From Oligoflexia bacterium (GTDB taxonomy: Bacteria > Bdellovibrionota > UBA1018 > CAIMNF01), in the NCBI GenBank assembly GCA_903845155.1, contig CAIMWN010000018.1:5594-69593 (forward strand): DNA of 64,000 nucleotides, given 5' to 3'. Both the position numbers and the translations under genes were made by a program. Shown in pieces: positions 6,185 to 36,753 of this stretch. The number at the start of each line of letters is the position of its first letter. Position 1 is the stretch's first letter. The notes under the pieces were generated by a model. The model was not told the DNA's origin, did no database searches, and was given only the letters and a program-made list of their open reading frames with translations.

Positions 6185-6433
6185 TAAAATAGAGAACGAG
6201 CTGTTCTCTCAGTTGATCTCTCATTACGGTTAAAAATAGACTCCTATCGAATTGTGTATTTAGCCCAGGAGAATTGTTTGAATTGCTTTAAACCCATCTC
6301 GTTGATTCCCCGGCATTCTCTCAGTCCGCACGAGAGTCAATCAGTACGAACCTACGGCGACTCGGCGATTTTAGGAGAACGGTATGTTCTCTGAGTGGTT
6401 GACTCTAGTGACCGATCCATTCATAAGGTCTTT

Positions 6434-11619: not shown

Positions 11620-12150
11620 TCAACCTACAGCTGGGGGATTATAAAAGGCCATGTGGTTTTTCAGTTTCCACCTGCTATGGCCGAGAATATTTGTTTTTTC
11701 TTCAAAAATCAGGGTGAAGCCGGTTTCTTTGCTTCCTACTTGCTTGCCCCCTTTCTTGAAATCCATGATTTGGGTGAGAAAGGTGAGTCCGCAACGAACC
11801 ATTCCGTATGCTAAGCCTTCGCCCGGCATATACTTGGTATCATTTTGAATGTATTTTAAATTGAAATTACTCGGGAGCAGTTTTTTGCAATCCCACATCA
11901 CGCGATTTACGCTGTATTGTGTTGCCTCAAGTGGAGTACTTAAGGCTCCTGCATACACTTCTGAAAATGTTTTTCCTTCAAGTGCACCAAGAGTGGCTCC
12001 CTCATCGGTGGGTACAATTTCTATTTTATTAATATTTTCCAAAATCAACTTCATGAAAGGTGCGCTGTCGATGGCGCCGTCATCCGCGCGTGCGCTGGTG
12101 ATGAGTGAATTAAGTGAACAGAGAAGGCTGAATAAAAGTAGGGTTTTCAT
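11620..12150 (-). CDS. Secreted hypothetical protein
   Basis: Signal peptide MKTLLLFSLLCSLNSLITSARA. The ORF-track start at 12183 adds 11 aa. Confidence 0.45.
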   Translation of the reverse strand: MKTLLLFSLLCSLNSLITSARADDGAIDSAPFMKLILENINKIEIVPTDEGATLGALEGKTFSEVYAGALSTPLEATQYSVNRVMWDCKKLLPSNFNLKYIQNDTKYMPGEGLAYGMVRCGLTFLTQIMDFKKGGKQVGSKETGFTLIFEEKTNILGHSRWKLKNHMAFYNPPAVG

Positions 12151-12219
12151 GGCAGCAGCATACCATTTTGTTCTATCGTACACAAGCCGTGTTTATTTAA
12201 TGCCGTCCAACGTTTCTAC

Positions 12220-13074
12220 TTATTTAGTTGATTGCAGATGACAAGCGTGATCTAAAAATGCAAACACATCAGGGAACCAGATATTTACTGCGTGGGTATT
12301 AAAAGCATGGCCTTCTTTAGTAGTGGTTCCTTGCTTTGGATATATTTTCAATTCAAACTTCTTCCCCGCACTTTTCATTTCTGCGGAAAGCGCCCGACTG
12401 GGAGTCAGGTCATAGTCATTTTCTGCTTGAAAAAAGTAGATCGGGCACTTCACCATTCGAACACTCTTTTTAAGTAGTTTTTGGAGTTCGGGGCTTGACT
12501 GCCAACTGTCAGCGCCACCGGATGCATCAAAACCAGCGCAGAACGGTTCTTTAGTAGCGGCGAGAATAGATTCAATTCCACCAAAGGAATTTCCGCCCAC
12601 TGCGATACGTTTGTGATCAATGAAAGTTTGCTTTTTTAACCATGCGTAAGCGGCAAGTTGGTCATCGAGTTGTTCCGTCTTGAGAAGGCTGATCGTCTTG
12701 GTGGATGCCGCTTTCGCTCCCCCTGACCTTCCCGCTTTTTTTATTTCGTCACCGATATATGAACCCGAGTCTTCACTTAAGCCTTGGCCGCGGCGATAGG
12801 GCATGAAAAAGGCCCAGCCATGTTTGACAAAGTAGGGGGCGATTCTCGCGGCAGTTTGGCTGTTGATCATTTTCGCCCCTTTACCGTGATTGTAAAGGAT
12901 AGCGGGAAATGGACCTTTGCCGTCAGGTTTGTAGAGAACTCCACCTAAGGGTAATTTGCCAAGATAAAAATGAATGACATCTGGCATGAGTGCACGTTCT
13001 TCGGCTGCGAATGCAGGTGTTTCGAATTGCCGTGATGAGCACAACAAGAATAAAATGAAGATCGTCAATTTCAT
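12220..13074 (-). CDS. Secreted alpha/beta-hydrolase (dienelactone-hydrolase / S9-like)
   Basis: Signal peptide MKLTIFILFLLCSS. Nucleophile elbow GGNSFGG; downstream ENDYD and EGHAF complete a Ser-Asp-His triad. Confidence 0.65.
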   Translation of the reverse strand: MKLTIFILFLLCSSRQFETPAFAAEERALMPDVIHFYLGKLPLGGVLYKPDGKGPFPAILYNHGKGAKMINSQTAARIAPYFVKHGWAFFMPYRRGQGLSEDSGSYIGDEIKKAGRSGGAKAASTKTISLLKTEQLDDQLAAYAWLKKQTFIDHKRIAVGGNSFGGIESILAATKEPFCAGFDASGGADSWQSSPELQKLLKKSVRMVKCPIYFFQAENDYDLTPSRALSAEMKSAGKKFELKIYPKQGTTTKEGHAFNTHAVNIWFPDVFAFLDHACHLQSTK

Positions 13075-20454: not shown

Positions 20455-20597
20455 TCTCCATTCCTTCTGAAATATTGTATCGGGCTGGACGTCCTTACTC
20501 AGTATGCCACGTCTGCAAAAAACATCCAATTTTTCGTTGGGTTCCTAAGATTTTGTGCATTGGCTTTTCTGAATGAGTGTTAGAATGGAAGGTATTA

Positions 20598-21557
20598 ATG
20601 ACGAATCGCAATCAAATGATGCTGCTCATCGCCGTCTTCGCTCTGGGTGGATATTATCTTTTCAATACACCCACGCCGAGTCCCCCTGTTGGGGTGACCG
20701 AAATTGCGCAACCGCAACCGGAAGCGCCAGAAATGACGCCAAAATTGAAATTGAATGCCGCAACTGTTAAGCAAGCGCGAGGCATTCAGTTGAGTGGGAA
20801 GTCGGCAGAAGTCAGTCAATTCCTGCCTTCTGAGGTTCCTCAAGGAAAAGTAAATCCGCGATATACTAATAAGCCGAGCGATATGACTGTTGAATTCGAA
20901 GAGATTGACGGTCAAGCGGTGGCTTTTGGTGACACCATTATCGGTAATTTAAGTAAAGACTTTACTGAGAAAAAGGGCATTACTGAAATGTTCATTCCCA
21001 AGTACTGGGACAAAGGGATTGTTCCGTATGCCATTCAGGCAACGGCGCCTCACCAAGATATGATTCAACAAGCGATCGATTATTTTAATAAAAATACTTC
21101 GATTAAATTTGTTCCCTATACAGGGCAAGACGATGCAATTGTTTTCGTAAAAGGGGAGGAGCACTGTCTCTCCTATTTGGGACGGACAGGGGGAACTCAA
21201 CCCATTTATATTTCTGGCTTGTGTGGAACTCATGAGATTCTTCATGAGCTGATGCATGCACTTGGTTTCGTCCATGAGCAATCCAGGCCAGATCGCGATC
21301 AGTATGTGGATATTTTCTGGAACCAGATTCAGGAAAAATATCAGGCACAATTTGCCATGGTTCCTGAGGTATTTATGCAAAGTTATTTCGGCTCGCCCTT
21401 TGATGCAGGTTCCATTATGATGTATAGCTCGCATGCTTTTGGAGTGAGCCCTGAGGCAGTCACTCTTAAATTAAAAAATGGACAAGAAGTGAAGCAAAGT
21501 GCCGGAGGCTTAAGTTCGAGCGACATGGAGAGAGTGAATCGGCTTTATCAAAATTAA
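20598..21557 (+). CDS. Astacin-family (M12A) zinc metalloprotease, membrane-anchored or secreted
   Basis: HELMHALGFVHEQSRPDRD (HExxHxxGxxHE) plus Met-turn SIMMYS. N-terminal signal-anchor. ATG 20598 with SD ggaagg is preferred over the GTG at 20577. Confidence 0.85.
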   Translation: MTNRNQMMLLIAVFALGGYYLFNTPTPSPPVGVTEIAQPQPEAPEMTPKLKLNAATVKQARGIQLSGKSAEVSQFLPSEVPQGKVNPRYTNKPSDMTVEFEEIDGQAVAFGDTIIGNLSKDFTEKKGITEMFIPKYWDKGIVPYAIQATAPHQDMIQQAIDYFNKNTSIKFVPYTGQDDAIVFVKGEEHCLSYLGRTGGTQPIYISGLCGTHEILHELMHALGFVHEQSRPDRDQYVDIFWNQIQEKYQAQFAMVPEVFMQSYFGSPFDAGSIMMYSSHAFGVSPEAVTLKLKNGQEVKQSAGGLSSSDMERVNRLYQN

Positions 21558-21583
21558 TATGAAGAAATTAACGTGGAAATTTA

Positions 21584-22948
21584 ATGCTCTTTAATTCGAC
21601 GTCATTTATTTTTCTTTTCATGCCCTTGGTCTTGTTGATCACTAGCAAATTGCGTGGTCAAAATTGGGTGCGAGCCATTGCACTTTTTAGTCTCATTTTT
21701 TATGCGTTCGCAGGTCATGCGTGGTTTCTCATTCCGATGCTTTTTACTACGGTCCTCGATTTCTTTTTGGCAAAGGAAATGGAAAAGCCTAAAAATGGAG
21801 ATGCGCGGAAGTCTATTTTAGTGTTTTCCATTTGTGCGAACTTAAGCCTCCTTTTCTATTTTAAATACGCAGGTTTGTTCACTCATTTGTTGGGGATTTC
21901 GATAGCGGGGGTGATTCTTCCGGCCGGAATTTCATTTTATACCTTCCAAACTTTGTCCTATATGATTGATGTATACCGAGGGAGCGCGCGTGCCGAAAGG
22001 AACTTCTGGGTATTTTTGTCCTTCGTTTCCTTTTTCCCTCATCTCGTTGCCGGGCCACTCACTCGTCACCATCAGCTGATTCCTCAGTTAAAACGAAACG
22101 CTGAAATAAAAGTTACGCCGCTCTGGAAAGCAGGAGTGTTTCTTTTTGTGCTTGGGCTTTCGAAAAAGGTGCTGGTGGCCGATCAAATTGCCCACTTGAT
22201 TGACCCTGTTTTGGAGCAGCCAAACCTCATGAGTAATCTCGACTCCTGGTTCGCCCTCTTGGGATTTGCTTTTCAAATTTACTTTGATTTTAGTGGGTAT
22301 ACCGATATGGCCATTGGGCTTGGACGTTTGCTTGGGGTCGAACTCCCGCAAAATTTCAATGACCCTTATCGATCACTCAATCCTAGTGATTTTTGGAAAC
22401 GTTGGCACATCACGCTGAGTCAGTGGTTGCGTGACTATTTATATATTCCTTTAGGCGGCAATCGCTGCTCACCTGCAAGGCAAAGATTTAATCTTTTTAT
22501 GACTATGTTGCTCGGCGGATTGTGGCATGGCGCTAATTTTACCTTTGTCATTTGGGGTTTTTATCATGGACTCTTATTGGTTTTGTATCATCAGTTTCAG
22601 AAAAAATGGGATGGACTCTCACCTCCGAGTTCAAAAGTGTTCACATTCGTACTCATCACTTTTGGCTGGGTGTTTTTTCGTGCACGAAACCTGCATGAAG
22701 TGAGTATATGGTTTGGTCAATTATTCATTCCGTCACATCTTGCTTCACTGTTAAATCCTTTTGATTTGATCAAACTAGAATTATTACTGATCGTCGCTTT
22801 TGTAATGACCACAAAAGCCCGCAGTTATTCTAAGATTGAAGCATTTGAAAAAAGCAATGTTCCCTTTGAGTTTGCGCTAGGATTGCTCGCTGCGCTTGCT
22901 TTTTTTATGATGGCAACTTCATCTAAATTTATGTATTTTCAATTTTAA
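21584..22948 (+). CDS. MBOAT-family membrane O-acyltransferase (AlgI/DltB-like)
   Basis: Multi-TM protein with WHITLSQWLRDYLYIPLGGNR (conserved His block of MBOAT/AlgI). Confidence 0.85.
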   Translation: MLFNSTSFIFLFMPLVLLITSKLRGQNWVRAIALFSLIFYAFAGHAWFLIPMLFTTVLDFFLAKEMEKPKNGDARKSILVFSICANLSLLFYFKYAGLFTHLLGISIAGVILPAGISFYTFQTLSYMIDVYRGSARAERNFWVFLSFVSFFPHLVAGPLTRHHQLIPQLKRNAEIKVTPLWKAGVFLFVLGLSKKVLVADQIAHLIDPVLEQPNLMSNLDSWFALLGFAFQIYFDFSGYTDMAIGLGRLLGVELPQNFNDPYRSLNPSDFWKRWHITLSQWLRDYLYIPLGGNRCSPARQRFNLFMTMLLGGLWHGANFTFVIWGFYHGLLLVLYHQFQKKWDGLSPPSSKVFTFVLITFGWVFFRARNLHEVSIWFGQLFIPSHLASLLNPFDLIKLELLLIVAFVMTTKARSYSKIEAFEKSNVPFEFALGLLAALAFFMMATSSKFMYFQF

Positions 22949-24100: not shown

Positions 24101-25561
24101 GTGCGAAATACGATAGTTTTATACTTAAACGGCATACGCTGCGAGCTGAGCGGAGACCTCGCTTTCATGACGGTGTCCGATTATCTCCGCTATCAAAAGG
24201 GCCTTACTGGTACCAAGGTAGTATGTGCTGAAGGCGACTGCGGTGCTTGCACAGTGCTCGTGTCGCGGATGGTGAATGGCAAACTTGGATCATACCAATC
24301 GATCAACTCCTGTATTAGTTTTATGTATCTGCTCGATTTGTGTCACCTCATCACGGTAGAGGGCTTAAAAAAAGAGGAGACACTTCATCCGGTTCAAAAG
24401 GCAATGCTTGATTCTAATGGCGCTCAATGCGGGTATTGCACACCTGGATTTATTTGTGCAATGGCTGGCCTGACTGAAGATGCAAAAAATGGGAAATTTA
24501 TTTTGGAAGAAAAGCGAGTTAAAAACTATTTGACTGGCAACCTTTGTCGCTGCACCGGTTACGACTCTATTATTCAAGCCGGTTGCTCGGTGAATGCTGA
24601 AGCGGCTCCTTCATTGCGCGTACTGTACCAGGATGAAGAAATTGAAAAGGATTTAAAATCACTTTCGGGCCAAACAGTGTGCCTGAAAGGCGCCCAGCAA
24701 GAGTTTTGTGCCCCGGCGACTTTATCTGAAGCGCTGACATTAAAAAGTGTAAATGTGGATCTGAAGCTCACCTCAGGAGCGACAGATCTAGGTGTACTTT
24801 CTAATAAGGGAAAATTAAAATTATTAAAAACGCTCACCCTTAATCATGTGGATGAGCTGTATTCGGTAAAAGAGGACACATCTTCACTGATGGTTGGAGC
24901 TAAAGCCTCGTTGACAGCGGTGGAAGAGGCCTGCCGAACACTTTTCCCGGCATTTTCAAACTACCTTCACATTTTTGCTTCGCCTCAAATTAAAAATGCA
25001 GGCACCCTCATTGGTAATGTGGTGAATGCATCTCCGATTGCCGACACCATTCCATTTTTAAAAGTAGCAGAAGCAGAAATAGGATTGAGTAGCGTTCGCG
25101 GAGAAAGAGTGCTCAATCTCAATCAGTTTTTTAAACCCGGCTACAAACAGCTCGATCTTTTGCCTGATGAACTCGTGACGCATGTGAAAATTCCAAAATC
25201 CCATGCAAAGTTTAAACTTTATAAAGTTTCCACGCGCAAAGACCTAGATATTTCTACCGTTACCTTTGCCGTTCGTTTTGAGTTAGTAGGTGACATCATT
25301 AAAAATATTTCTTTTGCATTCGGGGGTGTGGGGCCGAGCGTACTGCGCATGACTGAACTTGAGAAACAAGCAATTGGCAAAAAATTCGAGCCCGCACTCT
25401 TTAAGGCGCTTGCTCTAAATTTGCAGTCTATGATCACACCGCTGAGTGATGTTCGCGGAAGTGCGGACTACCGTCAACTACTGTGTCACAATCTGATGCT
25501 TAAGTTTTGTGACGAAGTGACGGCTGAGCTGGGGCTCCAATCTGCGGGGATTTCGGTATGA
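24101..25561 (+). CDS. xdhA: Xanthine dehydrogenase small subunit (2Fe-2S + FAD-binding)
   Basis: Two [2Fe-2S] cysteine clusters (CAEGDCGACTV; CGYCTPGF...CRCTGY) followed by a FAD-binding CO-dehydrogenase-flavoprotein-like domain. GTG start. ATGA overlap with xdhB. Confidence 0.9.
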   Translation: MRNTIVLYLNGIRCELSGDLAFMTVSDYLRYQKGLTGTKVVCAEGDCGACTVLVSRMVNGKLGSYQSINSCISFMYLLDLCHLITVEGLKKEETLHPVQKAMLDSNGAQCGYCTPGFICAMAGLTEDAKNGKFILEEKRVKNYLTGNLCRCTGYDSIIQAGCSVNAEAAPSLRVLYQDEEIEKDLKSLSGQTVCLKGAQQEFCAPATLSEALTLKSVNVDLKLTSGATDLGVLSNKGKLKLLKTLTLNHVDELYSVKEDTSSLMVGAKASLTAVEEACRTLFPAFSNYLHIFASPQIKNAGTLIGNVVNASPIADTIPFLKVAEAEIGLSSVRGERVLNLNQFFKPGYKQLDLLPDELVTHVKIPKSHAKFKLYKVSTRKDLDISTVTFAVRFELVGDIIKNISFAFGGVGPSVLRMTELEKQAIGKKFEPALFKALALNLQSMITPLSDVRGSADYRQLLCHNLMLKFCDEVTAELGLQSAGISV

Positions 25562-27900
25562 GTGTCGGGAATAGTATTCCTCATGATTCAGGCTTGGGTC
25601 ATGTCTGTGGCGAAAGTGTTTTTATTGATGATCGTGCTGAAACTCGTGGTGAAGTACACGTGGGCTTAGTCTGTAGTTCCATTGCGTGCGGTGATTTAAT
25701 TGAAATAGATGCAAGTGAGGCACTCAGGCATCCCGATTGTTTAGGGGTATTTACCGCCAAGGATTTCGTGCATAAAAAATGGGGAACCATTGTCCATGAC
25801 CAACCATTTTTGGTGGAAGACAAAATAAATTATATGAGTGAGCCCGTTTGCATTGTGGCTAGCCGCACACGGGATTCCATTGAAGCAATTAAACATTTAG
25901 TGAAGTTACAGGAAAAAGCGGCAGCAGGTATTTTTACCATTCAAGATGCCAGGAAAAATCAGTCTGTGATTTACCGCGCACTGAAGCCTTTTGTACAAGG
26001 AAACGTGGATCAAGCATTGAAGATGGCCCCTCATAAGCTCACCGGAACGTTTACGGTGGGTGGGCAAGAACATTTTTATATGGAATCGCAAGCGGCGGTG
26101 ATTTACCCACTTGAGAATGGGCAACTTGAAATTCATTCATCAAGCCAACATCCCAGTGAAACTCAGCGTACCGTTGCCGAGGCTTTAGGTTTATCGCTTC
26201 ATCAAGTGGTGTGTGTGGTGAAGCGTATGGGCGGGGGTTTTGGTGGCAAGGAATCTCAGGCAGGCCCTATTGCGGCTTATGCTGCATTGGTCGCTCAAAA
26301 GTTAAAGAAACCTGCTCGACTCATTCTCACTAAAGATGAAGACATGAAAATTACGGGAAAAAGACACCCTTTTCAGAATGAGTACGAAGTCGCTTTCGAC
26401 GATGACGGTAAAATTCTAGGAGTGAAGGTACTACTTCAATCAGACGGAGGAGCGTACGCGGATCTTTCTGCCTCTATTCTCGATCGGGCGATGTTTCACT
26501 TCGATGGAGTCTATTATTTAGAGAACGTGCACATCGATGCTGTTTGTTATCGAACGAACAATCATTCGAATACTGCATTCAGAGGTTTTGGTGGTCCACA
26601 GGGAAACATGACCATGGAAAGCATTATCGAAGATATCGCACATTTTTTGAAAAAGGATGCAGCCGTCGTGCGACTTCGAAACCTTTATCAAGGTCCGAAC
26701 GTCAAAACCCCGTACGGACAAAATCTTGAAAACAATATGCTGCCTGAGATTTTTAGACAACTCATCACTACTTCGGAGTATGAAAAGCGCCGAGTGGAGA
26801 TTGATAAGGAAAATCTAAAAAAAACAGGGGTGCTTCGCGGGATTTCCATCACCGGCACAAAGTTTGGAATAGCCTTTACTGCGCGTTTCCTTAATCAAGG
26901 GAATGCCCTCGTCAATTTGCATTTGGATGGGACTGTACAGGTGAGCACTGGTGCGACTGAAATGGGCCAAGGCGTGAACACTAAGATTCAGCAAATCGTA
27001 GCGCATGGTTTTGGGATTGAATCCGGATCAGTTCAAGTGATGACGACTTCTACAGAGAAAAATCATAATACCTCGCCTACGGCAGCATCCAGTGGTTCTG
27101 ATATTAATGGGGCGGCAGCGCTGAAAGCGGTAAACAAGATTAAGGTGAATTTAATAGGGCTTGCTCGTAAGAAATTCGCCGGTGAAGTGAGTTCCGCATT
27201 GAAAGAGTATGAGTTAGAGCAGAACGCGGAAACCGTGCCTTTAGATCCGAATTTTATCTTTCAACATGGTAAAGTAGTGGAACTTTCCACCAAAAAGGAA
27301 ATCTCTTTAAAAGAGCTCATTAGCATCGCTTATCAAAATCGTGTTTCTTTAGGTGCCTATGCACATTTTAAAACTGGTGGCCTTGGGTTTGATAAAGAGA
27401 AAGTGGAAGGCAAAGCGTTCAATTATTTTACGCAAGGAATGGCCGTGAGCGAAGTTTCTGTTGATGAATATACCGGTGAAGTGAAGGTTTTACGTGTAGA
27501 TCTATTGATGGACCTGGGTCGTTCTATTAATCCCGGTATTGATCGCGGGCAAGTGGCGGGAGGCTTTGTGCAAGGGATGGGGTGGGTCACTACTGAAAAT
27601 CTTTTTTACGATGAAAGACGAAATCTTATTTCTCATTCTCCGACTACTTATAAAATCCCAAATATTCAAGATACGCCACGCGAATTTAATATTCATTTTA
27701 TTGAAAACCTAAATAACGACTGTAATGTGTACGGTTCAAAAGCCGTGGGGGAGCCACCACTCTTGTTGGGGTCAAGTGTGTGGACAGCCGTAAAACATGC
27801 GCTCAGTTATCGGTCGAAAAGCAACATGGTAAACCTCACATCTCCTGCGACGGGCGAAGTGGTGTTAATGGAATTGACTCGCTTAAAGAGGAGCCCTTGA
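25558..27900 (+). CDS. xdhB: Xanthine dehydrogenase molybdopterin-binding large subunit
   Basis: 780 aa; aldehyde-oxidase/xanthine-dehydrogenase a/b hammerhead and MoCo-binding blocks (GGGFGGKE, GQGxxTK). Confidence 0.9.
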   Translation: MSVGNSIPHDSGLGHVCGESVFIDDRAETRGEVHVGLVCSSIACGDLIEIDASEALRHPDCLGVFTAKDFVHKKWGTIVHDQPFLVEDKINYMSEPVCIVASRTRDSIEAIKHLVKLQEKAAAGIFTIQDARKNQSVIYRALKPFVQGNVDQALKMAPHKLTGTFTVGGQEHFYMESQAAVIYPLENGQLEIHSSSQHPSETQRTVAEALGLSLHQVVCVVKRMGGGFGGKESQAGPIAAYAALVAQKLKKPARLILTKDEDMKITGKRHPFQNEYEVAFDDDGKILGVKVLLQSDGGAYADLSASILDRAMFHFDGVYYLENVHIDAVCYRTNNHSNTAFRGFGGPQGNMTMESIIEDIAHFLKKDAAVVRLRNLYQGPNVKTPYGQNLENNMLPEIFRQLITTSEYEKRRVEIDKENLKKTGVLRGISITGTKFGIAFTARFLNQGNALVNLHLDGTVQVSTGATEMGQGVNTKIQQIVAHGFGIESGSVQVMTTSTEKNHNTSPTAASSGSDINGAAALKAVNKIKVNLIGLARKKFAGEVSSALKEYELEQNAETVPLDPNFIFQHGKVVELSTKKEISLKELISIAYQNRVSLGAYAHFKTGGLGFDKEKVEGKAFNYFTQGMAVSEVSVDEYTGEVKVLRVDLLMDLGRSINPGIDRGQVAGGFVQGMGWVTTENLFYDERRNLISHSPTTYKIPNIQDTPREFNIHFIENLNNDCNVYGSKAVGEPPLLLGSSVWTAVKHALSYRSKSNMVNLTSPATGEVVLMELTRLKRSP

Positions 27901-27902
27901 GC

Positions 27903-28703
27903 ATGGAACAGAGTCTCCCTCAGTTTTGCGAGCGCTTTTTAGAGCTTTATCAAAATAAAACTCCGATGGTAGTCGTGACCCTAACCGATATGGTAGGACA
28001 TGCACCGCAAGATGTAGGCGCAAGAATGATCGTCGGAACGGACGAAATTTATTTCGGGACCGTGGGCGGCGGTAAGCTTGAAAAGCGTTGTATTGATTTA
28101 TCACGCGAGTTTCTAACATCAAAAATTCCAATTAAAAATCAGTCCCATCAATGGAACCTGCCACGCGATATTGGAATGACTTGCGGTGGAGAGGTGACCC
28201 TTTATTTTGAAACTTATAAACCTGAAGAGACGTGGAAGATTGCAATCTTTGGTGCGGGACATATTTCTCAGGAGTTAGTCCCCATATTGCTAAAATTAAA
28301 TTGTGAACTAACCGTCGTTGATCCGAGGCCAGAGTGGTTAAGTCGATTGCCCCATTCTCCTCGTTTGAAGAAGATTCAAGAAGAGAATATGCCGCTAGTG
28401 CTAGAGACTTTAGATTCGAACACTTTTGTTGCCATCGTGACCATGGGGCACGCGACCGACTACCCATTGGTGAAGCTAGCACTTGAAAAACATCATTTTC
28501 CCTATCTAGGAGTCATTGGAAGTAAAGTGAAGAGAATTAAAATGAACGCAGATTTGATAGCGAGCGGAATTCCTGAAAAGCTAGCTAAAGAGGGATTTTA
28601 TTTACCCATGGGTGAAGATTTCGGCAGAAACACACCGGCCGAAATTGCCTTAAGTATTGTGGCGCAATTGTTGAAAACAAGAGATCAGCTCTTCAATCCG
28701 TAG
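27903..28703 (+). CDS. xdhC: XdhC-family molybdenum-cofactor insertion chaperone
   Basis: XdhC/CoxI N- and C-terminal Rossmann-like halves (VVVTLTDMVGHAPQDVGARMIV...GGG...IFGAGHISQELV). ATG 27903 with SD aagaggag is preferred to the ORF-track start at 27780, which would overlap xdhB by 120 nt. Confidence 0.8.
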   Translation: MEQSLPQFCERFLELYQNKTPMVVVTLTDMVGHAPQDVGARMIVGTDEIYFGTVGGGKLEKRCIDLSREFLTSKIPIKNQSHQWNLPRDIGMTCGGEVTLYFETYKPEETWKIAIFGAGHISQELVPILLKLNCELTVVDPRPEWLSRLPHSPRLKKIQEENMPLVLETLDSNTFVAIVTMGHATDYPLVKLALEKHHFPYLGVIGSKVKRIKMNADLIASGIPEKLAKEGFYLPMGEDFGRNTPAEIALSIVAQLLKTRDQLFNP

Positions 28704-31700
28704 ACATGCATGCGGTTGATGCCGCCGTCCGGATATACCGTTACTTTGATTTGCTTAAATTCCTGTGAAGAGTGAATTCTAAATTCTATTTTATTCCCAG
28801 CATATGCTTTCACATTGGTTTTGGGAACGAGGATGTTCCATTGATCGCCGCCTGAAAGTGTCAGACCCTGAAGACTCAACTCAAAGGGATTATTGTTTCT
28901 AAAAAATGTAAAATCAATTTCAATGCGATGAATTTGAGAAGGGCGCCCCAGTTCAACAGTTACTTCTTCGAAGTGTCCCTTCGTTCTGCTTCTTGCTGAC
29001 TCGGATCCATCAAACATATTTACCGGAGGATAAGGCGAGATCATTTGCACTGCAGGACTGTAATGTTCGTTCGTGGCACCCGTAATTTTTCCTCCATAGG
29101 CGAGGCATGCAAGATCTACCTCAGCACCTTCAGGTAAGCGATCCCAATTCTGTTGAATGGTAGTAGGTGTGGCATTGTATTTGGGTGTCAGTGGCCGCAC
29201 CGGGTGCGGAATGGGATCAGGAAAAAGAATATTCTTTGCTTGATCTAATGGCTGAAAGTTAATTTTATCTTGTTCGGGCAGTGATTCATTAAATAGGCCC
29301 ACACGCGACAAGCCCCCGTCTGGATACATGGATACGCGAATAGTTTTGTAGGTGGTGTCATCCTTTGCGAGTTGCACTTGCTTTAAAGAGTGACCTTCTA
29401 GTTTCAATTTAGGTAAGATTACTTTCCACTGGTCTGATCTAATATCTAGGCCTTCAATCGTGACGGCCTCGGGATGATTTCCTTGATGAAATTGAGTAGA
29501 GAGTGAAACAAAGTGGATTGGAGAAGGTTTCTTCAATTGAAAGGTAAGACTGTCTCGAGGGTCGTGTGCAGGTTTGTAATTATGTCTGACGCTCTCCCAG
29601 CTATCCATGATTTTCCCCTGACGGCCATACAGTTCGGGATCAAATATAGGAAGGTTCGGCGACAAAAGGTTTTCAGCTCGTGCAAAACGCTCGTTGGTGA
29701 CCTCCAGTATTTTACTTCCTACCGCTAAGTTGAAGGGAGCCAGTGGGTCGGGCGTTCCTTTGATGGTGATTGCTTCTGGCTGGTCTGGTTTAAACGCTTC
29801 AAAAATAAGCCTTTTGTAGCCTAAATTCACTATTTCTTCCTGAGGAATGCTTGAGGTGTCGAAGTCAGATTTGAAAAGGGTGGTGTCCACTCCTTGAAAA
29901 TTGAGCTCCTTTAAAATAAGTTGTGCGGCCTCTGCAATAAACAGAACGCCTTTTGTGTCTGCATTGCACAGGATAACAAAGCCGAGTCCTCGATCTGGCC
30001 CCGAAAAACATTGAACAAAGAGACCACGAAAACCATCATTTGCTCCTTGATGAATGGCGAAGCGATTTGGGCCCGCTTCAGCAATAAAAACACCTAATCC
30101 AATATTCACTCCCATGAACTTCTGACTCAAGCGATCTTGGTCACCCAGCATCTGTATCGCCGTATCGTGCGAAATAGGACCTGAGCCCTTGATTGAATGG
30201 AAACTCTCGGTGAGCTTGCTTAAAAATGAAGCCATGTCTGAGGCAGTACCCATAGCACCGGCTGCAAAAGCTGGAAACTTCTTGCGGGTGCCTTTGACGG
30301 GCTCGCCTGAATCCAAATAACCATGAGCATAGTCAATGCCGGGAATTGTATTTTGCTCAAAGCTTAAATGGTGAAGCCCCAGTTCTTTGAAAAAATCTTG
30401 GGTCATTTCTTGAATACTCTTTTGTTCTAGTGATTCCAAGAGATGCTCGAGCACCAAGAACCCTCCGCCTGAGTATTGAAACGCAGAACCCGGTTCATGA
30501 AGTACGCCCACTTTGGGATATCCGTATTTTTGGTTGCCACTGAGAAGTTCCGAAATGCGAGGCATGGGCTCGTCCGCGGGAATCCCATTCACATAGTGCA
30601 TGTTTAATGCATTATGCTTCATCAGGTTTGCAAGTGTCACTTGGTTAGCCCACTCTGGACTATTTTTGTCCAAGGATTCTAATCTAAATGAAGAAGTGGA
30701 CTGTTCAAAAACGGAATTAACAGGAGTCGAAAGCGAAATGCCATTCTTTCTAAAATACTCAAGTGCAAAGGCGCTTGCCATCGTCTTGCTTAAGGATGCA
30801 AGCTCAAACCAAGTGTGCTCACCAACTCGTTCTTTCCCTCGCTGGCGATCACCAATGCATATGTTTTGTTTCGTCGTCAACGAGGTATTCACCGTGATGG
30901 TGGCGCCATTGACTTGGTAGCGAAGAAGTAATTGATTTAACTTTTCATGAAGATTTAAAAACGGCAGTTTCTTCAGCCTCTTGAGGCTGATTTCCCATAA
31001 AGCATTTCTTGCTTGAACGAGCTCCAGTTCCTGGGTGCTTTGTAAGCGCGTATTTAAATCAGCAAGTATCTCGGCGCTCGATTTTCCTTCTGCAGAAATG
31101 AGGTACTTAAACCCAAACTTCTTCAAGTAGCGGTCGCCCAATGCACGAAGTTCGGCCTGTGTCTCGGCGCCAGCTTTTAAAACAAGTGCTTGTTCTTGAG
31201 ATGCGACTTCATCGAGAGTTTTCTTGCTTTCGCCAATATTCCCGTGAAAGCTTGCGGCATGAAGGATGTCATCTAGGGTAAAGTTTTTTATAATCGTTTC
31301 AGCCTTCACCAAATCAACCGTGAGGTCAGAAGCAAGCGGGTGGGCAAACGAAACGCTTCCGCATATAGAAAAGTATTCGTTAAAACGTTGAATGTAATCT
31401 GTGCATAGAAACTTCTCAGGATCCAGTTTAGTCACGACATTCCAAGGGTCGCTTTCATTTCTGATTGACTCGACAGTAAACGGCAGTAAGAGTTCAGTTG
31501 CGAATTCGGGAGGGTGGGAACTTGTCATGAGTTTGATCATGATTTTCATTGCGATCCCGTACCATTTTTCAGTTCTTTCATCCCATTTCACTTGAACGAT
31601 TTTCTGAGCGTTCGATAAGTCTTTCCGAATGAAGAGCATTTCCTCATGAATAATTTTCAAGAATGCATCGATGCTAAATCGCCCATGATGAATCTCGTGC

Positions 31701-33433
31701 CAAACTTCCCAACGCGAGCGCTCCGCAGTGGCGAGGTCATCCATCACTCGTACAGAAACTCCATTGATGGTTGCAGGAAGTGCAACGCAGCCACGGCCTG
31801 ATAGCCAGTCGGTAAGGTACTGGAGTGATTGAAATACATTATAGCGGATTTCTTCGCTGTCGTTATTCGCTATAAATGGTGATTCCTTCATGTCGGCTAC
31901 AATTAATGACCGAGGATAGAGTGGGTGATGAGTGTCGAGGCCCACTATGTCTTTCCCGTGTATAAAACTCATCATGTCAGCGTGGTGCTCTTTTACTAGT
32001 AAACCTTCCACCATTTTTTGAAGAGGAGCAGAATCATTTTGTTGATGAAGTTCCCATGCGCGAACCAAGGCGAGTCCAATGCGAATAAAGTCTGGGTGGG
32101 CGACCCAAAAACCACTCAAGCCGCGCTTAAGCTGTGTGATCACATCTCTCATAAAACCTTTAATCGTCATTTGAAATGAGGCGCTCAGGCGATCATCGTC
32201 GATGGAAAGAATGCCATACATGCCGCCAATCTTAATCCCACCTCTTGAGCCCACCACTTCAGTGAGAAGATCGTGTGAGGCTTTGATGCATTTAATTACA
32301 ATATTCGGATCAGCCTTTACGGGAATTCGATAGTTTGAGTCCTCTCTAAATAAGCGTGCCGTTGAAGCGAGGTAGTCATGCCAACCAAGAGATGCACCAG
32401 CGAAGTAGGGATAGAGTGCGTCCATAATCTCATTCACGCGAAAGATCGCACGCGGATTTTCTAAAACGAGGAGTAAACGGATACTGCCCAACTTGTACGC
32501 GGAATGACGATTTTTGAGGAGTTTTTCTGTCGTTTCCACCATGTGATGAATGTAAAGAGCATCTTCTTCATTTTCTAGCTTGGGCACATAGAAGGTGAGG
32601 GCGGCTTCGTTTTCCCAATGTTTAAAACAATGGAGAGCAAAATCGTATAAGTGTAAAGGGATTGGTTGCTCACGGTAAAATAAGAAGGTGCAAGGCAGCG
32701 CGAGACCCGGAAAGCGTTTAATAGGAAGGGTGAGCCGTTCGCTTTCAATTTTGTAGGTTTTGTTATTTTTTGAGTCTGTAAAGCTTAAGCTCTGGTCGTA
32801 ACAGGCGTTCAGATTCATTGCTGCCGCGATTAAATCCTGTCGGATAGGCGTTTTTGAATCTTCATCATCCGCGCCCCATTTAGGAAGATCAGTGCTAGTT
32901 TCAAGCAATTCAGAAATAATGCTCGGTTCATCTTTGAGTTTACGATGAAAGGCATTCATCGCGTTGATACAGAGTTTTGCGTTATCGGGTGGACCAAAGA
33001 GAGTAACGTGATTTCCGCTCAAGTGCTTCGGAATAGGCGCAATGGGTTTGCCATAACCGCGTGTGCAGTAGTGTTCGTTTTTCGGCCCAAGCACAGTGCG
33101 GCCGTTTCCGTCTTCGTGGCTGATGACGGTTTCATATCGTGGATCCAGTAAATCAATTCCGAGTGTGCGATTGAGTTCGCTGCAAGCGCGCGTTCGTTGA
33201 TCAATAAATTGTCGATCTTGAGTGCGTTGAGAGAGTGTTGCAGCCAATTGCCCTTTCACGCCATCGTAAAGTTCGCATAAAAACTGAAGCGAAGATTGGG
33301 TCTCAAGGCCTCCACCTTTGCCTACTTCGCGAAGTTCAGGAATATTCGTAACGGGCTGGCTCTCAGCCAATAACTTGGAAAGAAGGGCCGGAGTAATATA
33401 ATCTTGATAATAGGGGATCTCTCGCTGTTTCAT
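28685..33433 (-). CDS. Four-module purine-catabolism fusion protein: malate-synthase-like / OHCU decarboxylase / serine beta-lactamase-fold hydrolase / allantoicase (two repeats)
   Basis: Uninterrupted 1582-codon ORF. aa 1-640 match malate synthase A blocks (VTLFGPPDNAKLCINAMNA; IRLLLVLENPRAIFRVNEIMDALYPYFAGASLGWHDY; FWVAHPDF). aa 650-825 match OHCU decarboxylase (SFHGNIGE; KKFGFKYLISAEGKSSAEILADLNTRL). aa 840-1180 carry SxxK (ASLSK), YxN (HYVNG) and HxG (IHQGANDG) of the beta-lactamase/PBP fold. aa 1200-1582 carry two allantoicase repeats (MDSWESVRH; GSESARSR) each ending YPDGG...R. ATGA-coupled to hiuH upstream. Confidence 0.8.
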   Translation of the reverse strand: MKQREIPYYQDYITPALLSKLLAESQPVTNIPELREVGKGGGLETQSSLQFLCELYDGVKGQLAATLSQRTQDRQFIDQRTRACSELNRTLGIDLLDPRYETVISHEDGNGRTVLGPKNEHYCTRGYGKPIAPIPKHLSGNHVTLFGPPDNAKLCINAMNAFHRKLKDEPSIISELLETSTDLPKWGADDEDSKTPIRQDLIAAAMNLNACYDQSLSFTDSKNNKTYKIESERLTLPIKRFPGLALPCTFLFYREQPIPLHLYDFALHCFKHWENEAALTFYVPKLENEEDALYIHHMVETTEKLLKNRHSAYKLGSIRLLLVLENPRAIFRVNEIMDALYPYFAGASLGWHDYLASTARLFREDSNYRIPVKADPNIVIKCIKASHDLLTEVVGSRGGIKIGGMYGILSIDDDRLSASFQMTIKGFMRDVITQLKRGLSGFWVAHPDFIRIGLALVRAWELHQQNDSAPLQKMVEGLLVKEHHADMMSFIHGKDIVGLDTHHPLYPRSLIVADMKESPFIANNDSEEIRYNVFQSLQYLTDWLSGRGCVALPATINGVSVRVMDDLATAERSRWEVWHEIHHGRFSIDAFLKIIHEEMLFIRKDLSNAQKIVQVKWDERTEKWYGIAMKIMIKLMTSSHPPEFATELLLPFTVESIRNESDPWNVVTKLDPEKFLCTDYIQRFNEYFSICGSVSFAHPLASDLTVDLVKAETIIKNFTLDDILHAASFHGNIGESKKTLDEVASQEQALVLKAGAETQAELRALGDRYLKKFGFKYLISAEGKSSAEILADLNTRLQSTQELELVQARNALWEISLKRLKKLPFLNLHEKLNQLLLRYQVNGATITVNTSLTTKQNICIGDRQRGKERVGEHTWFELASLSKTMASAFALEYFRKNGISLSTPVNSVFEQSTSSFRLESLDKNSPEWANQVTLANLMKHNALNMHYVNGIPADEPMPRISELLSGNQKYGYPKVGVLHEPGSAFQYSGGGFLVLEHLLESLEQKSIQEMTQDFFKELGLHHLSFEQNTIPGIDYAHGYLDSGEPVKGTRKKFPAFAAGAMGTASDMASFLSKLTESFHSIKGSGPISHDTAIQMLGDQDRLSQKFMGVNIGLGVFIAEAGPNRFAIHQGANDGFRGLFVQCFSGPDRGLGFVILCNADTKGVLFIAEAAQLILKELNFQGVDTTLFKSDFDTSSIPQEEIVNLGYKRLIFEAFKPDQPEAITIKGTPDPLAPFNLAVGSKILEVTNERFARAENLLSPNLPIFDPELYGRQGKIMDSWESVRHNYKPAHDPRDSLTFQLKKPSPIHFVSLSTQFHQGNHPEAVTIEGLDIRSDQWKVILPKLKLEGHSLKQVQLAKDDTTYKTIRVSMYPDGGLSRVGLFNESLPEQDKINFQPLDQAKNILFPDPIPHPVRPLTPKYNATPTTIQQNWDRLPEGAEVDLACLAYGGKITGATNEHYSPAVQMISPYPPVNMFDGSESARSRTKGHFEEVTVELGRPSQIHRIEIDFTFFRNNNPFELSLQGLTLSGGDQWNILVPKTNVKAYAGNKIEFRIHSSQEFKQIKVTVYPDGGINRMHVYGLKS

Positions 33434-33753
33434 GTGCCTCGATAGGTGGAGTATCCAAACGGGTTCAGTAAAAGTGGAACGTGATACTTTCGTTGAGTGT
33501 TTTCTACTTTAAAGATAACGGGTATGTCTTGGAAGAAGCATTCGGTAGATTTATTTTTAAAATAGTTTTCAATCTCAAAAATGATTTGATAAATCCCAAC
33601 ATTCTTTTCGATATCAAAGGAAAATCGGCCGTCCGCATTGGTCGTTCCCGCAGCGAGAGTGGTCCATTGGCCGCCATTTTTGATGAGCAACTTCACGGTG
33701 ACTCCAGAGGCAGCGGTTCCGAGACTCGTATCTAAAATATGAGTGCTGATCAT
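33430..33753 (-). CDS. hiuH: 5-hydroxyisourate hydrolase (transthyretin-like)
   Basis: 107 aa. N-terminal STHILDTSLGTAASGV and C-terminal ...YRGT (HIUase signature is YRGS). Confidence 0.8.
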   Translation of the reverse strand: MISTHILDTSLGTAASGVTVKLLIKNGGQWTTLAAGTTNADGRFSFDIEKNVGIYQIIFEIENYFKNKSTECFFQDIPVIFKVENTQRKYHVPLLLNPFGYSTYRGT

Positions 33754-33756
33754 TTC

Positions 33757-35366
33757 TTACTCCTTCTTAAACGAAAAATCTAAATTAATGGTTTCATTCT
33801 CTTTGACGGAAACTTTTTTAGACTGATTGCCAAATACTTCATGCCACGCTTCAAGGGTGTATTCACCTACGGGGATGTTCTTGATGATGAACTCTCCGGC
33901 ATCATTGGTCACGCTGTAAAAGGGATGATCCATTACTGCGATCGATGCACTCATCCAAGGATGTACGCTACATTTCGTCTGTACAAAAATCTCAGGGTGA
34001 TTGAAAATCTTGGTGACCCGATCATCTTTGCTTGGCATCGCAACATTGAAATTCTCATTCTGACTGGTGATTGATTTCACATTGTGAAATGTCGCATCGC
34101 TGTTGATGAAATCCACCTTTTGCCCCACACGTACGGCAATGACTCGAGGTTCATATTGGCAATTTTTTTGATCCAGAATTGCCGCTACGGCAGGCACGTC
34201 ATGATATTCTTTGCCTTCAAGGCCCTTCGAGATTCGGACAAGGACGTTTTTTAGTTTTCCATTGTTGATCATGATGTCGTTGGCGTAAGTGTCGCTTTTA
34301 TTTTGTTGTGCACAAATGAGTGGAAGTTGAAGTTTCTCACCGTGAAGTGCGGGACCATTAAACAGAGCTAATCCTTTAATGGTGCCAGTGGGGCCATTCG
34401 CTGCAGCCGATGGTTCAGTTGCTGGTGTATTCGTTGCAGTTGCTGCAAGGGGTGCCGAGTTCTCGTGGGTAAAGAAAATCACGCCAATGATCAATGCAAC
34501 TCCCACTAAACCAAACGCTTTAGATCGAGGTGGATTCTTTAAGCGCACCACGAAGAATTCCCGAATGGCTGCTCCCGCTGCACTCATTAACAAAAGAATG
34601 ATCCAATTGTATTGGTTTCCGTAAGTGGACGGAAAATGATTGCTGAGCATGATGAAGATCACGGGAAGCGTGAAGTAGGTATTATGGGTAGAACGATTTT
34701 TTGCGTTTTTCCCCCATTCCTGATTCACGGGCTCGCCTCTTTTAGACGCTTCCACCATTTTCAATTGGCGAGGAATAATGCGTAGAAAAACGTTGGCCGT
34801 CATCCAAGTACCGAGCATGCCGCCGATATGAATATAGGCAGCTCTACCGCTGAGTGTATGGCAGAGAAAATATGCCATCCCGCCAAACCAAAGGAGGGTG
34901 AGGGCGTGCGCAAGAACCGGAGTGGTTTTTGAAAATTTGGATTCCCATAAAAAATCATAAAAGAGCCAAGAACCCACCAGTGAGATGACACTCAGACCAA
35001 CCGCCTGAAAAAACGTAATGTGAGAGAGACGGAAGCGTCGAGAAGAAAAGTGCCACTTCCGGCGTAGAAAATCATGCAGATCAAAAAAATTCCGCTGAGC
35101 CAGGTCCAGTATGACTCCCATTTGAACCAATGGAGTGATTCAGGAACTTTGGTAGGGCCCATGAGAAGTTTCTCTACGTGGTAAAATCCACCACCATGAA
35201 CCATCCACAACTCACCCACATGTCCGTCTTTTTTTGATAGCTCATTGAACTCAATGGTGCGATCCAGCCACATGAAAAAGATGGAAGTTCCAATCCACGT
35301 AATGGCGACGGTAATATGAAGCCAGCGTCCTAGTAAAAGTAGCCAATCAAATAACTCTTGATCCAC
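33757..35366 (-). CDS. puuD: PuuD-like integral-membrane urate oxidase with C-terminal cupredoxin (type-1 copper) domain; apparent +1 frameshift in an A6/T6 run
   Basis: The N-terminal 124-aa ORF (GTG 35366, SD gagggg) reads WLHITVAITWIGTSIFFMWLD...GELWMVHGGGFYH...LHWFKWESYWTWLSG, as recalled for the Urate_ox_N/PuuD family. The membrane domain continues in another frame (ORF 33757-35130) after the run at 35009-35014. One extra base joins ...SVSLTLRFF|QAVGLSVISL... seamlessly. The C-terminus has His-x37-Cys-x2-His-x2-Met (FHNV...CSVHPWM), an amicyanin-like copper site, with no CxxCH. Confidence 0.5.
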
Positions 35367-35433: not shown

Positions 35434-36753
35434 ATGCCCGGGCAAAATTACCGCTTCTTTCTCGCTAGTATTTTAAATCCAAAAAACGACACCAAGTGCG
35501 ATTATTTTGCGCATGGGATGTTGGTCGTTTGCGATCAGGGTAAACAGAGCTTCATTGAGGCCGTTCTCCCGTTCAATAAGGGCATGAAAAAATACTCAAG
35601 ACTCATGACCACCGCCAATACCACTGATTTTGGGAGTGCGGTGATCATGCCCGGATTCTTTGATATGCACTTTCATTGGGTGCAAGATGATGTTCGCACG
35701 CAACCCAAGGACTCTCTGCTTGAGTGGCTTGAAAAGTATACCTTTCCCGCTGAAATGAAATTTGCAGATCCAAAATATGCTGCAAGTGAGGCCAAGATTT
35801 TTTTCAAACGCTTGAGTCGAGTTGGCACATTGGGTGGCGCTTGTTATAGTTCTATTCACGGTCCGGCGCTGGAGTGCGCGATGAGTGAAGTGAAGGGGGA
35901 TTTCGTCATTGGGAATGTGCTGATGGATCAGTTTTCTCCGCCTGAGCTTACTCAGACGGAGGCTGAGGCAATTGCGCTCACCAAGAAGATGATTCGAAAG
36001 TTTGGGAGGAGATTTGCGTTTACCCCTCGCTTTGCAATCAGCACCTCGCCAGCGCTGATGAAAAAAGGAAGTAAGCTTGCCGACCAAGCTCATTGTTTTA
36101 AACAAAGTCACTTGTCAGAAAATCCGGCAGAAATTGAATTTGTTTTGAAACTCTATAAAAAGTTACCGGGTTACAAAAAGTGTTCCTCTTATACAGATAT
36201 ATACAAAAAGACAGGAATGCTCGGCAAGCGTTCACTGATGGGGCATGGTATTCATCTTTCCAGTGCAGAATTAAAAATGCTCCATGAAACAAAAACCACG
36301 CTCATTCATTGTCCAACCTCGAACGCGCCGATTCGAGAAAAGGGTCTTGGTTCTGGGCTTTTTGATTTCAAACGGGTTGAAAGAGCGAAAGTGCGTTGGG
36401 CACTTGGTTCCGATATTGGTGGCGGCCCCTTTTTATCGATGTTTGATGTGATGAGAAGTTTTGTGATTCAAAATAAGCGAGCCAAGGTGAAAGGTGCCAC
36501 TTTTGTAAAGGCGTTGTACCGTTCCACGCTCTCGGGTGCCGAGGTTTTTGGAATTGCTGCAAAGACTGGAAATTTAAATCGGAAGAAGGAAGTAAATTTT
36601 ATCGTCGTGCCGTTGAATGCTTCAAAGCCCCCCCATTCCGCGGAGGATGCATTGAAGCGCATTATCAATGCCCCAAAGGCGAAGCGAGAGTTGTTTGATC
36701 AGCTGCCGAGCGTAGTTTACTACCGCGGCAAACCTATCGTGAATCAAGCGTAG
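35434..36753 (+). CDS. guaD: Guanine deaminase
   Basis: Collinear with E. coli GuaD: PGFFDMHFHWVQ, SLLEWLEKYTFPAE, FTPRFAISTS, HLSENPAEIEFV, HCPTSN, LGSDIGGG. Confidence 0.85.
   Translation: MPGQNYRFFLASILNPKNDTKCDYFAHGMLVVCDQGKQSFIEAVLPFNKGMKKYSRLMTTANTTDFGSAVIMPGFFDMHFHWVQDDVRTQPKDSLLEWLEKYTFPAEMKFADPKYAASEAKIFFKRLSRVGTLGGACYSSIHGPALECAMSEVKGDFVIGNVLMDQFSPPELTQTEAEAIALTKKMIRKFGRRFAFTPRFAISTSPALMKKGSKLADQAHCFKQSHLSENPAEIEFVLKLYKKLPGYKKCSSYTDIYKKTGMLGKRSLMGHGIHLSSAELKMLHETKTTLIHCPTSNAPIREKGLGSGLFDFKRVERAKVRWALGSDIGGGPFLSMFDVMRSFVIQNKRAKVKGATFVKALYRSTLSGAEVFGIAAKTGNLNRKKEVNFIVVPLNASKPPHSAEDALKRIINAPKAKRELFDQLPSVVYYRGKPIVNQA

Follow-up and report, generated by a model that had tools for sequence, protein, structure and literature searches.

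We analysed a window of 64,000 nucleotides (positions 5,594 to 69,593 of contig CAIMWN010000018.1, assembly GCA_903845155.1, from an Oligoflexia bacterium; all positions below are counted from the first letter of this window) and found that one gene on its minus strand, at 28685-33433, encodes a single polypeptide of four fused modules: a malate-synthase-A-like module, a 2-oxo-4-hydroxy-4-carboxy-5-ureidoimidazoline (OHCU) decarboxylase, a serine beta-lactamase fold and an allantoicase. This fusion protein almost certainly works in purine/ureide catabolism, and the gene probably encodes a cytoplasmic multi-enzyme of urate/ureide catabolism acting after urate oxidase and 5-hydroxyisourate (HIU) hydrolase. 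The pathway and the folds are known; the architecture is new, and it holds two candidate new enzyme-fold assignments, the beta-lactamase fold as an allantoinase and the malate-synthase-like module as a ureidoglycolate lyase.

The open reading frame (ORF) starts with ATG and runs through 1582 residues plus the stop codon with zero internal stops, as had been claimed in an earlier reading of the bare sequence (the original prediction). The four fused modules proposed in that reading were all found by a Pfam-A scan above the gathering scores, with five families and in the order claimed, and the boundaries drawn by hand (residues 1-640, 650-825, 840-1180 and 1200-1582) agreed with Pfam to a few residues. 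The modules, all on the minus strand, are listed below.

31490 to 33433, minus strand: module 1, divergent malate-synthase-A-like, residues 1-648 (from Pfam, fold and signature residues); MS_TIM-barrel (PF01274) at residues 242-456, 66.0 bits against a cut-off of 26.4, and MS_C (PF20659) at residues 526-646, 39.3 bits against 23.1
30959 to 31471, minus strand: module 2, OHCU decarboxylase domain, residues 655-825; OHCU_decarbox (PF09349) at residues 710-821, 72.5 bits against 24
29879 to 30931, minus strand: module 3, serine beta-lactamase / DD-peptidase fold, residues 835-1185; Beta-lactamase (PF00144) at residues 861-1163, 88.0 bits against 27
29264 to 29728, minus strand: module 4a, allantoicase repeat 1, residues 1236-1390; Allantoicase (PF03561) at residues 1239-1381, also from the alignment with 1SG3
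28688 to 29155, minus strand: module 4b, allantoicase repeat 2, residues 1427-1582; PF03561 at residues ~1427-1579, also from the alignment with 1SG3; 177.1 bits in total for the two repeats against 27

The NCBIfam models recognised the same four kinds of module. The malate-synthase boundary drawn by hand was likewise upheld by AlphaFold and Foldseek, in which residues 1-650 make up the whole malate synthase A fold. The motif SFHGNIGE, previously read in module 2, is present at residues 728-735 (nucleotides 31229-31252), while the coordinates given for it were off by one codon. Inspection of the N-terminus by eye, with no predictor, revealed no obvious signal peptide.

The fusion is genuine and not an assembly artefact. 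A protein identical to the window product is present in public data (P0001), and a search for orthologous fusions, suggested together with the original prediction, gave at least 187 distinct full-length sequences in which all four modules are kept. The best 120 homologues were 1411-1659 residues long, had 56-65% identity and carried the same five Pfam families. In a scan with one genome per species, 192 genomes encoded a relative of the beta-lactamase-fold module, and these hosts belong to Bdellovibrionota and some Planctomycetota. Among the cultured hosts are two Bdellovibrio strains (sp. HCB337 and sp. HCB2-146), Peredibacter sp. HCB2-198 and Oligoflexus tunisiensis, with complete genomes of cultured strains represented by HCB337, HCB2-198 and O. 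tunisiensis. The protein of HCB337 is WP_413287732.1, and the complete genomes with the fusion include NZ_CP178621.1, NZ_CP174607.1 and that of O. tunisiensis (NZ_BDFO01). Hosts among metagenome-assembled genomes (MAGs) include many Bacteriovoracaceae, Halobacteriovoraceae and Silvanigrellaceae and one set of Planctomycetota; in a few MAGs the label (Chitinophaga, Polynucleobacter) probably reflects an error of binning. The module order was kept in nine divergent representatives, whose first modules were as little as 41% identical; one of these, P0136, gave no OHCU match in Pfam, and no variant with another domain replacing PF00144 was found among the cluster representatives checked. Mean pairwise identity was highest in module 1 (67%), followed by the beta-lactamase fold (53%), the allantoicase (49%) and the OHCU decarboxylase (48%). 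All four modules are under purifying selection and none resembles a decayed passenger. The neighbouring puuD gene carries a homopolymer frameshift in the window, so the assembly does contain errors, and the long ORF might on that ground be taken for separate genes joined by mis-assembly or by lost stop codons. This explanation was rejected because the comparative data, namely the identical public protein and the 187 full-length homologues, some of them from complete genomes of cultured strains, refute it, and the chance that it is right is negligible.

Modules 2 and 4 very probably have the activities predicted by homology. When module 2 is aligned with the Klebsiella OHCU decarboxylase (5UOU/3O7H), the enzyme's His67, Glu87 and C-terminal Arg are matched by H730, E747 and R819, which are kept in 183, 184 and 182 of the 187 homologues, respectively; we take the equivalents of these residues to be catalytic in the zebrafish and Klebsiella structures. 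The OHCU decarboxylase equivalog model scored 74 bits against a cut-off of 139.4. Both repeats of module 4 align with yeast DAL2 (1SG3), the motifs MDSWE.VRHN and PDGG..R are invariant in the 187 homologues, and TIGR02961 scored 195 bits against 277.9.

The degradation of urate to glyoxylate takes six steps, catalysed by urate oxidase, HIU hydrolase, OHCU decarboxylase, allantoinase, allantoicase and ureidoglycolate lyase. The window and 80 related loci were collected (81 loci, 1.3 Mb) and all of their ORFs were clustered. Across these loci, the purine clusters had no recognisable gene for allantoinase or ureidoglycolate lyase and no recurrent neighbour with a matching fold. A tblastn search of the same loci with E. 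coli AllA, AllB, AllC, AllE, AllD and Gcl returned a single match and no allantoinase or AllA; the match, AllB-like and located in L001, was rejected as an allantoinase because it is a dihydropyrimidinase (TIGR02033, 608 bits) within a pyrimidine-degradation cluster. A scan of 30 ORFs of the window, with most of the larger ones among them, found neither enzyme, and within the fusion protein Pfam and NCBIfam gave no Amidohydro or Polysacc_deac match, that is, no homology to AllB or PuuE. Two steps are thus left with no gene and two modules with no function, and the simplest pairing is that of the beta-lactamase fold, a hydrolase which would open a cyclic amide, with allantoinase, and of the malate-synthase-like module, a glyoxylate-binding fold, with ureidoglycolate lyase. 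The pathway order noticed earlier in the three C-terminal modules is plausible.

Module 3 is a fairly likely serine-type allantoinase, a proposal drawn solely from this pathway gap. Its AlphaFold model has a predicted local distance difference test (pLDDT) score of 94.7, and the module belongs to the S12/PF00144 serine amidase-esterase fold with the S-x-x-K and K/H-x-G motifs present. The motifs are S880-L-S-K883, Y987-S-G989 and H1128-Q-G1130; S880, K883, Y987 and H1128 are invariant in the 187 full-length homologues, Q1129 is kept in 186 and G1130 in 181, and the Asn of the usual Y-x-N is replaced by an invariant Gly (G989). The solved structures closest to it are those of D-peptidases, of D-amino-acid amidase, of family VIII esterases and of LACTB. 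The comparators within PF00144 and MEROPS S12 are the Streptomyces R61 DD-peptidase, the Ochrobactrum D-amino-acid amidase, Pab87, EstB, IS11, LACTB and the class C beta-lactamases; unlike these hydrolases, module 3 has Gly in place of the Y-x-N Asn, is internal to a cytoplasmic multi-enzyme and stands in a purine context. The bla_class_C model scored 42 bits against a cut-off of 415. A role in beta-lactam resistance or in the cell wall was rejected on the purine context, the cytoplasmic fusion and the absence of the Y-x-N Asn; such a role is unlikely for a domain that lies inside a protein without an obvious signal peptide. Within the chain, module 3 sits between the allantoin-making and the allantoate-using modules, and this position is fixed across two phyla. 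With AllB/DAL1 (binuclear-metal amidohydrolases) and PuuE (polysaccharide-deacetylase fold) it would share only the proposed reaction, the hydantoin ring opening of (S)-allantoin; there is no homology, and a serine nucleophile with an acyl-enzyme is proposed here as against a metal-activated water there. No paper linking allantoinase with the PF00144 fold was found in the literature searched.

Module 1 has about even chances of being a ureidoglycolate lyase rather than a malate synthase. Its AlphaFold model (pLDDT 87.9) superposes over the full length on E. coli malate synthase A (MSA), with a Foldseek E-value of 3e-25, a template modelling (TM) score of 0.82 and 22-23% identity to 3CV2/3CUZ, and shows the overall MSA fold of TIM barrel and C-terminal plug. 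The earlier description as malate-synthase-A-like therefore held for the fold and failed for a canonical MSA, since TIGR01344 gave 137.7 bits against a cut-off of 594.5. The Pfam scan gave no match to the MS_N domain (PF20656). In the alignment, Arg166, Glu250, Asp278, Trp365 and Asp447 of E. coli MSA are kept as R240, E325, D353, W443 and D566, all of them invariant in 187/187 homologues. Arg276-Trp277 is replaced by W351-H352, with Trp351 likewise invariant in 187/187, so that the motif GRWD reads GWHD; RRVEITGP reads NHVTLFGP, and an 8-residue insertion (residues 553-562) lies between the equivalents of Cys438 and Asp447, before the catalytic Asp. The canonical V-E-I-T-G-P, G-R-W-D and short Cys438-Asp447 loop were kept in 23/23 canonical MSAs compared.

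An exhaustive search of module 1 against 1.84 billion cluster representatives separated these two signatures by their partners. The carriers of G-W-H-D were the four-module fusions, a few stand-alone forms and fusions to allantoicase only (P0191, P0208 and P0288, in loci L085-L088), in which a malate-synthase-like module and an allantoicase make up a two-module protein of ~900-1040 residues. A further W-H-D protein, P0272 (L083:10001-11764), lies 40 bp upstream of a stand-alone allantoicase (11804-13003); other genes of this contig are eukaryote-like (ESF1, Der1, protein kinase). The carriers of G-R-W-D were ordinary malate synthases, three of them fused to isocitrate lyase. The fusion and the allantoicase-linked clades share His and Thr in the first barrel strand, the W-H-D and an insertion of 8-10 residues before the Asp447 equivalent, and in a distance tree the W-H-D proteins split from the canonical enzymes in 100/100 bootstraps. 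The W-H-D changes thus mark proteins fused or adjacent to allantoicase and never to isocitrate lyase, and this recurrent and exclusive link is the main argument for the lyase role. Stand-alone proteins of the same clade (666-780 residues) are P0145 (L081:6573-8915), P0148, P0143 and P0152 (L082:1462-3588), of which P0145 and P0148 nest within the fusion clade; these stand-alone forms may have arisen when the other modules were lost. As a separate observation, the metagenomic proteins P0221, P0246 and P0257 have an R-W-D malate synthase first and an isocitrate lyase fused C-terminally; judged from their domain make-up they would be bifunctional proteins of the glyoxylate cycle, the mirror image of the allantoicase-linked fusions.

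A malate-synthase-like protein of zebrafish (DrMSL/UGL, NP_001188337) was reported to act as a ureidoglycolate lyase and to have no activity as a malate synthase (Dembech et al., PNAS 2023, PMC10120013), and the vertebrate lyase co-evolves with allantoicase (PMC10120013); by this precedent, module 1 may make glyoxylate rather than consume it. The lyase group, which includes proteins of Dictyostelium and Saprolegnia, was reported as eukaryote-only (PMC10120013). Like DrMSL, module 1 has the MSA fold, keeps the Arg, the Glu and both Asp residues of the glyoxylate site, has Arg276 substituted, carries an insertion close to where the glyoxylate and acetyl-CoA sites meet and is evolutionarily coupled to allantoicase. 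The differences, with DrMSL compared by its published description and not by sequence, are that Arg276 is Trp here and Ile there, that Trp365 is kept here and Met there, that the insertion has 8 residues here and 2 there, that the acetyl-CoA contacts are largely kept here and the site is unconserved there (PMC10120013), and that module 1 is bacterial and fused. Neither the module 1 representative search nor a word-based search with P0272 found a sequence with the Ile/Met signature of DrMSL.

Several observations weigh against the two assignments. None of the four modules reached an NCBIfam equivalog cut-off, which makes all of them divergent family members, and an allantoinase of the AllB/PuuE type or an AllA lyase may be encoded outside the 81 loci, to which the absence of these enzymes applies and in which PuuE was not searched for specifically. 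Module 3 is 13-23% identical to its closest solved structures, which do not act on hydantoins, and reaches no more than about 22% identity with any characterised enzyme; we know of no PF00144 enzyme that opens a hydantoin ring. It might instead be another serine hydrolase, acting on a ureido-amide, a peptide or an ester, or a scaffold or oligomerisation domain, with the AllB/PuuE-type allantoinase located elsewhere; human LACTB is reported to form filaments (PMC9815587), so PF00144 domains can be architectural. We consider such a non-allantoinase role rather unlikely. The nucleophile and general-base motifs, invariant in 187/187, argue against a purely structural role, the place of the module between allantoin producer and allantoate consumer is the same in two phyla, and no allantoinase lies beside the 81 copies though other genes of the pathway cluster there; a cell-wall or beta-lactam enzyme would hardly be an internal domain of a cytoplasmic protein.

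For module 1, the rival is a genuine divergent malate synthase that would condense glyoxylate from the pathway with acetyl-CoA to malate, as does yeast DAL7, a true malate synthase encoded in an allantoin cluster. On this reading, the breakdown of ureidoglycolate would be spontaneous, or it would be due to a secondary activity of allantoicase or to an enzyme encoded elsewhere. The catalytic Asp447, Arg166 and the Mg ligands Glu250/Asp278 of MSA are all retained in D566, R240, E325 and D353, and Trp365, which is Met in the zebrafish lyase, is also kept (W443). The acetyl-CoA contacts of E. coli MSA, I94/T95/G96/M102/M330/P369/C438 (positions from PMC3112382), correspond to L145/F146/G147/L154/M405/P447/C549, four being identical and two conservative, with T95 changed to Phe (Val in the malate synthase G equivalent). 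Module 1 is also the most conserved module, as expected when two substrates and a metal are bound, and P0145 and P0152, examined as a possible unfused version of the system, have no purine genes in their neighbourhoods. The true malate synthases G and H likewise show no conservation of Arg276 and Trp277. However, the altered motifs are invariant in canonical MSA, the 8-residue hairpin is inserted where the thioester should approach, and the same changes track fusion or adjacency to allantoicase and never to isocitrate lyase. A malate synthase would moreover leave the ureidoglycolate lyase step geneless in an otherwise complete cluster, and it agrees poorly with the low TIGR01344 score and the undetected MS_N domain. 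We rate a true malate synthase as rather unlikely, and ureidoglycolate lyase, at about even odds, as the proposed role of module 1.

In the scheme that would follow from both assignments, xanthine dehydrogenase would give urate. This would be converted to 5-hydroxyisourate by the PuuD-type oxidase, or by a classical uricase in planctomycete loci, and HIU hydrolase would turn the product into OHCU. Module 2, as assigned by homology, would then form (S)-allantoin and CO2. In module 3, Ser880 is proposed to attack the ring carbonyl of (S)-allantoin (the ring amide) to give an acyl-enzyme whose hydrolysis would yield allantoate, a chemistry formally akin to the opening of a beta-lactam and an allantoinase unrelated to AllB and PuuE. 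Module 4, again assigned by homology, would split allantoate into (S)-ureidoglycolate and urea, and module 1 would release glyoxylate and urea from ureidoglycolate. Channelling of the intermediates between the modules, suggested in the original prediction, is possible. That the general scheme holds, with at least one of the assignments of modules 1 and 3 correct, has slightly better than even odds. All the module assignments taken together are a tentative proposal, more doubtful than certain. The strongest form is similarly speculative: here PF00144 would provide a third, serine-nucleophile class of allantoinase, module 1 would be the first ureidoglycolate lyase with a malate synthase fold in prokaryotes, and one chain would carry out four consecutive reactions from OHCU to glyoxylate, two urea and CO2, possibly with hand-over of intermediates.

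As the original prediction had supposed, no characterised single-chain assembly of this kind turned up, and no paper describing a four-module chain of this pathway was found in the literature searched. Two-module fusions of the urate pathway are known, such as B. subtilis PucL (OHCU decarboxylase and uricase) and the plant allantoin synthase (HIU hydrolase and OHCU decarboxylase). The NCBIfam models PRK13797 (a 521-position 'allantoicase', which we take to be an allantoicase/OHCU decarboxylase fusion) and PRK13799 ('unknown domain/N-carbamoyl-L-amino acid hydrolase fusion protein') point to others. Like these, the present protein joins consecutive or nearby steps of urate/ureide breakdown in one chain, often with OHCU decarboxylase as the partner; unlike them, it has four modules for up to four consecutive steps, and it includes PF00144 and malate-synthase-like modules that were not previously tied to the bacterial pathway. 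The yeast DAL cluster comprises DAL1 (allantoinase), DAL2 (allantoicase), DAL3 (ureidoglycolate lyase) and DAL7 (malate synthase). It keeps the same functions together, including a malate synthase homologue beside an allantoicase, but spreads them over several genes, with an allantoinase of the metal-dependent amidohydrolase type and a lyase of the cupin type, whereas here there is a single chain without those folds.

If module 3 is an allantoinase, it would be a third and mechanistically different solution to a central nitrogen-recycling step, and a metabolic role would be known for one branch of the very large PF00144 "beta-lactamase" family, which is routinely mislabelled in resistome surveys. 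If module 1 is a lyase, the animal malate-synthase-like lyase would have bacterial counterparts, and the insertion together with the W-H-D signature would serve as an annotation rule against true malate synthases. The four-step fusion would be a natural test case for the channelling of intermediates, and it may account for the way in which predatory bacteria of the Bdellovibrio kind draw nitrogen and carbon from the purines of their prey. The current names, "serine hydrolase" (NCBI) and often "malate synthase" (JGI, where component names are listed automatically), both obscure the pathway.

The link of all four modules to purine/ureide catabolism, already made in the original prediction, was supported by homology and also by gene context. 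The neighbouring genes of this pathway in the window are the following.

33430 to 33753, minus strand: HIU hydrolase (transthyretin family), directly upstream of the fusion gene; PF00576; TIGR02962 124.3 bits against a cut-off of 87.45
33757 to 35366, minus strand: PuuD-type membrane urate oxidase (Urate_ox_N / DUF989), split by a frameshift
35434 to 36753, plus strand: guanine deaminase (amidohydrolase family), divergently transcribed
24101 to 25561, plus strand: xdhA, xanthine dehydrogenase
25558 to 27900, plus strand: xdhB, xanthine dehydrogenase
27780 to 28703, plus strand: xdhC, xanthine dehydrogenase

The TGA stop codon of the HIU hydrolase gene overlaps the ATG of the fusion gene (ATGA, 33430-33433), and the spacing of the two genes is -53 to +21 nt in 43 related loci, an overlap of stop and start that suggests translational coupling. 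Across the 81 loci the fusion was counted in 81, HIU hydrolase in 57, PuuD in 48, xdhB in 29, xdhC in 28 and xdhA in 27, numbers that are lower bounds because many contigs are short. The commonest arrangement was PuuD-HIU hydrolase-fusion. A classical cofactor-less uricase stands instead of PuuD in 6 loci, mostly labelled Planctomycetota; by this exchange, the unit kept across two phyla consists of a urate oxidase of either kind, HIU hydrolase and the fusion. A deaminase of the cytidine-deaminase fold occurs in 7 loci labelled Planctomycetota and Bdellovibrionales. The best models of the guanine deaminase scored 296.5 and 284.2 bits, under their cut-offs of 351 and 375.4, and its 17 matches included no allantoinase model. 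The xdhABC genes (24101-28703, plus strand) converge on the 3' end of the fusion gene. The ORFs of xdhC and the fusion gene, as called, overlap by 19 bp at their 3' ends (28685-28703), which leaves no room for separate terminators. As listed, xdhC starts at 27780 and shares 120 bp with xdhB, and this start probably lies too far upstream.

The puuD gene is intact in the 48 related loci. In the window, residues 1-114 of related PuuD proteins matched one frame and residues 113-536 another (tblastn), with the junction near 35008-35030 (~35025) at a run of six T; the frameshift reflects either a sequencing error in this homopolymer or a true pseudogene. The long PuuD-like proteins beside the fusion (457-582 residues), for example those encoded at 33757-35130 of the window (minus strand) and by ORFs in L001-L075 such as L007:5505-7169, were without the CXXCH haem motif in 36/36 cases, and the 11 short PuuD proteins (269-424 residues) retain it. 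Cytochrome c was stated for all full-length members in the PuuD paper (PMC4562309). The long proteins all carry C-[SN]-[VI]-H-P-W-M (36/36), with FHN[VI] ~35 residues upstream in 34/36, followed by a CarboxypepD_reg-like beta-sandwich. As motifs alone, the pair looks like the ligands of a type-1 copper (cupredoxin-like) site; Pfam gave no cupredoxin match in these proteins.

In one Bdellovibrionales MAG, a reductive pyrimidine-degradation set lies ~3.5 kb downstream of the fusion gene (L001:15752-20821) and consists of methylmalonate-semialdehyde dehydrogenase, dihydropyrimidinase, a carbamoyl-amidase-like protein of the nitrilase family and an aminotransferase, so that purine and pyrimidine catabolism adjoin in this locus. 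In the window, at 6395-8259 and 20577-22948 (both plus strand), a HAD acid-phosphatase-like gene stands beside an S1/P1 nuclease gene, with an astacin metalloprotease and an MBOAT acyltransferase nearer to the purine cluster, and these genes fit a prey-digesting lifestyle.

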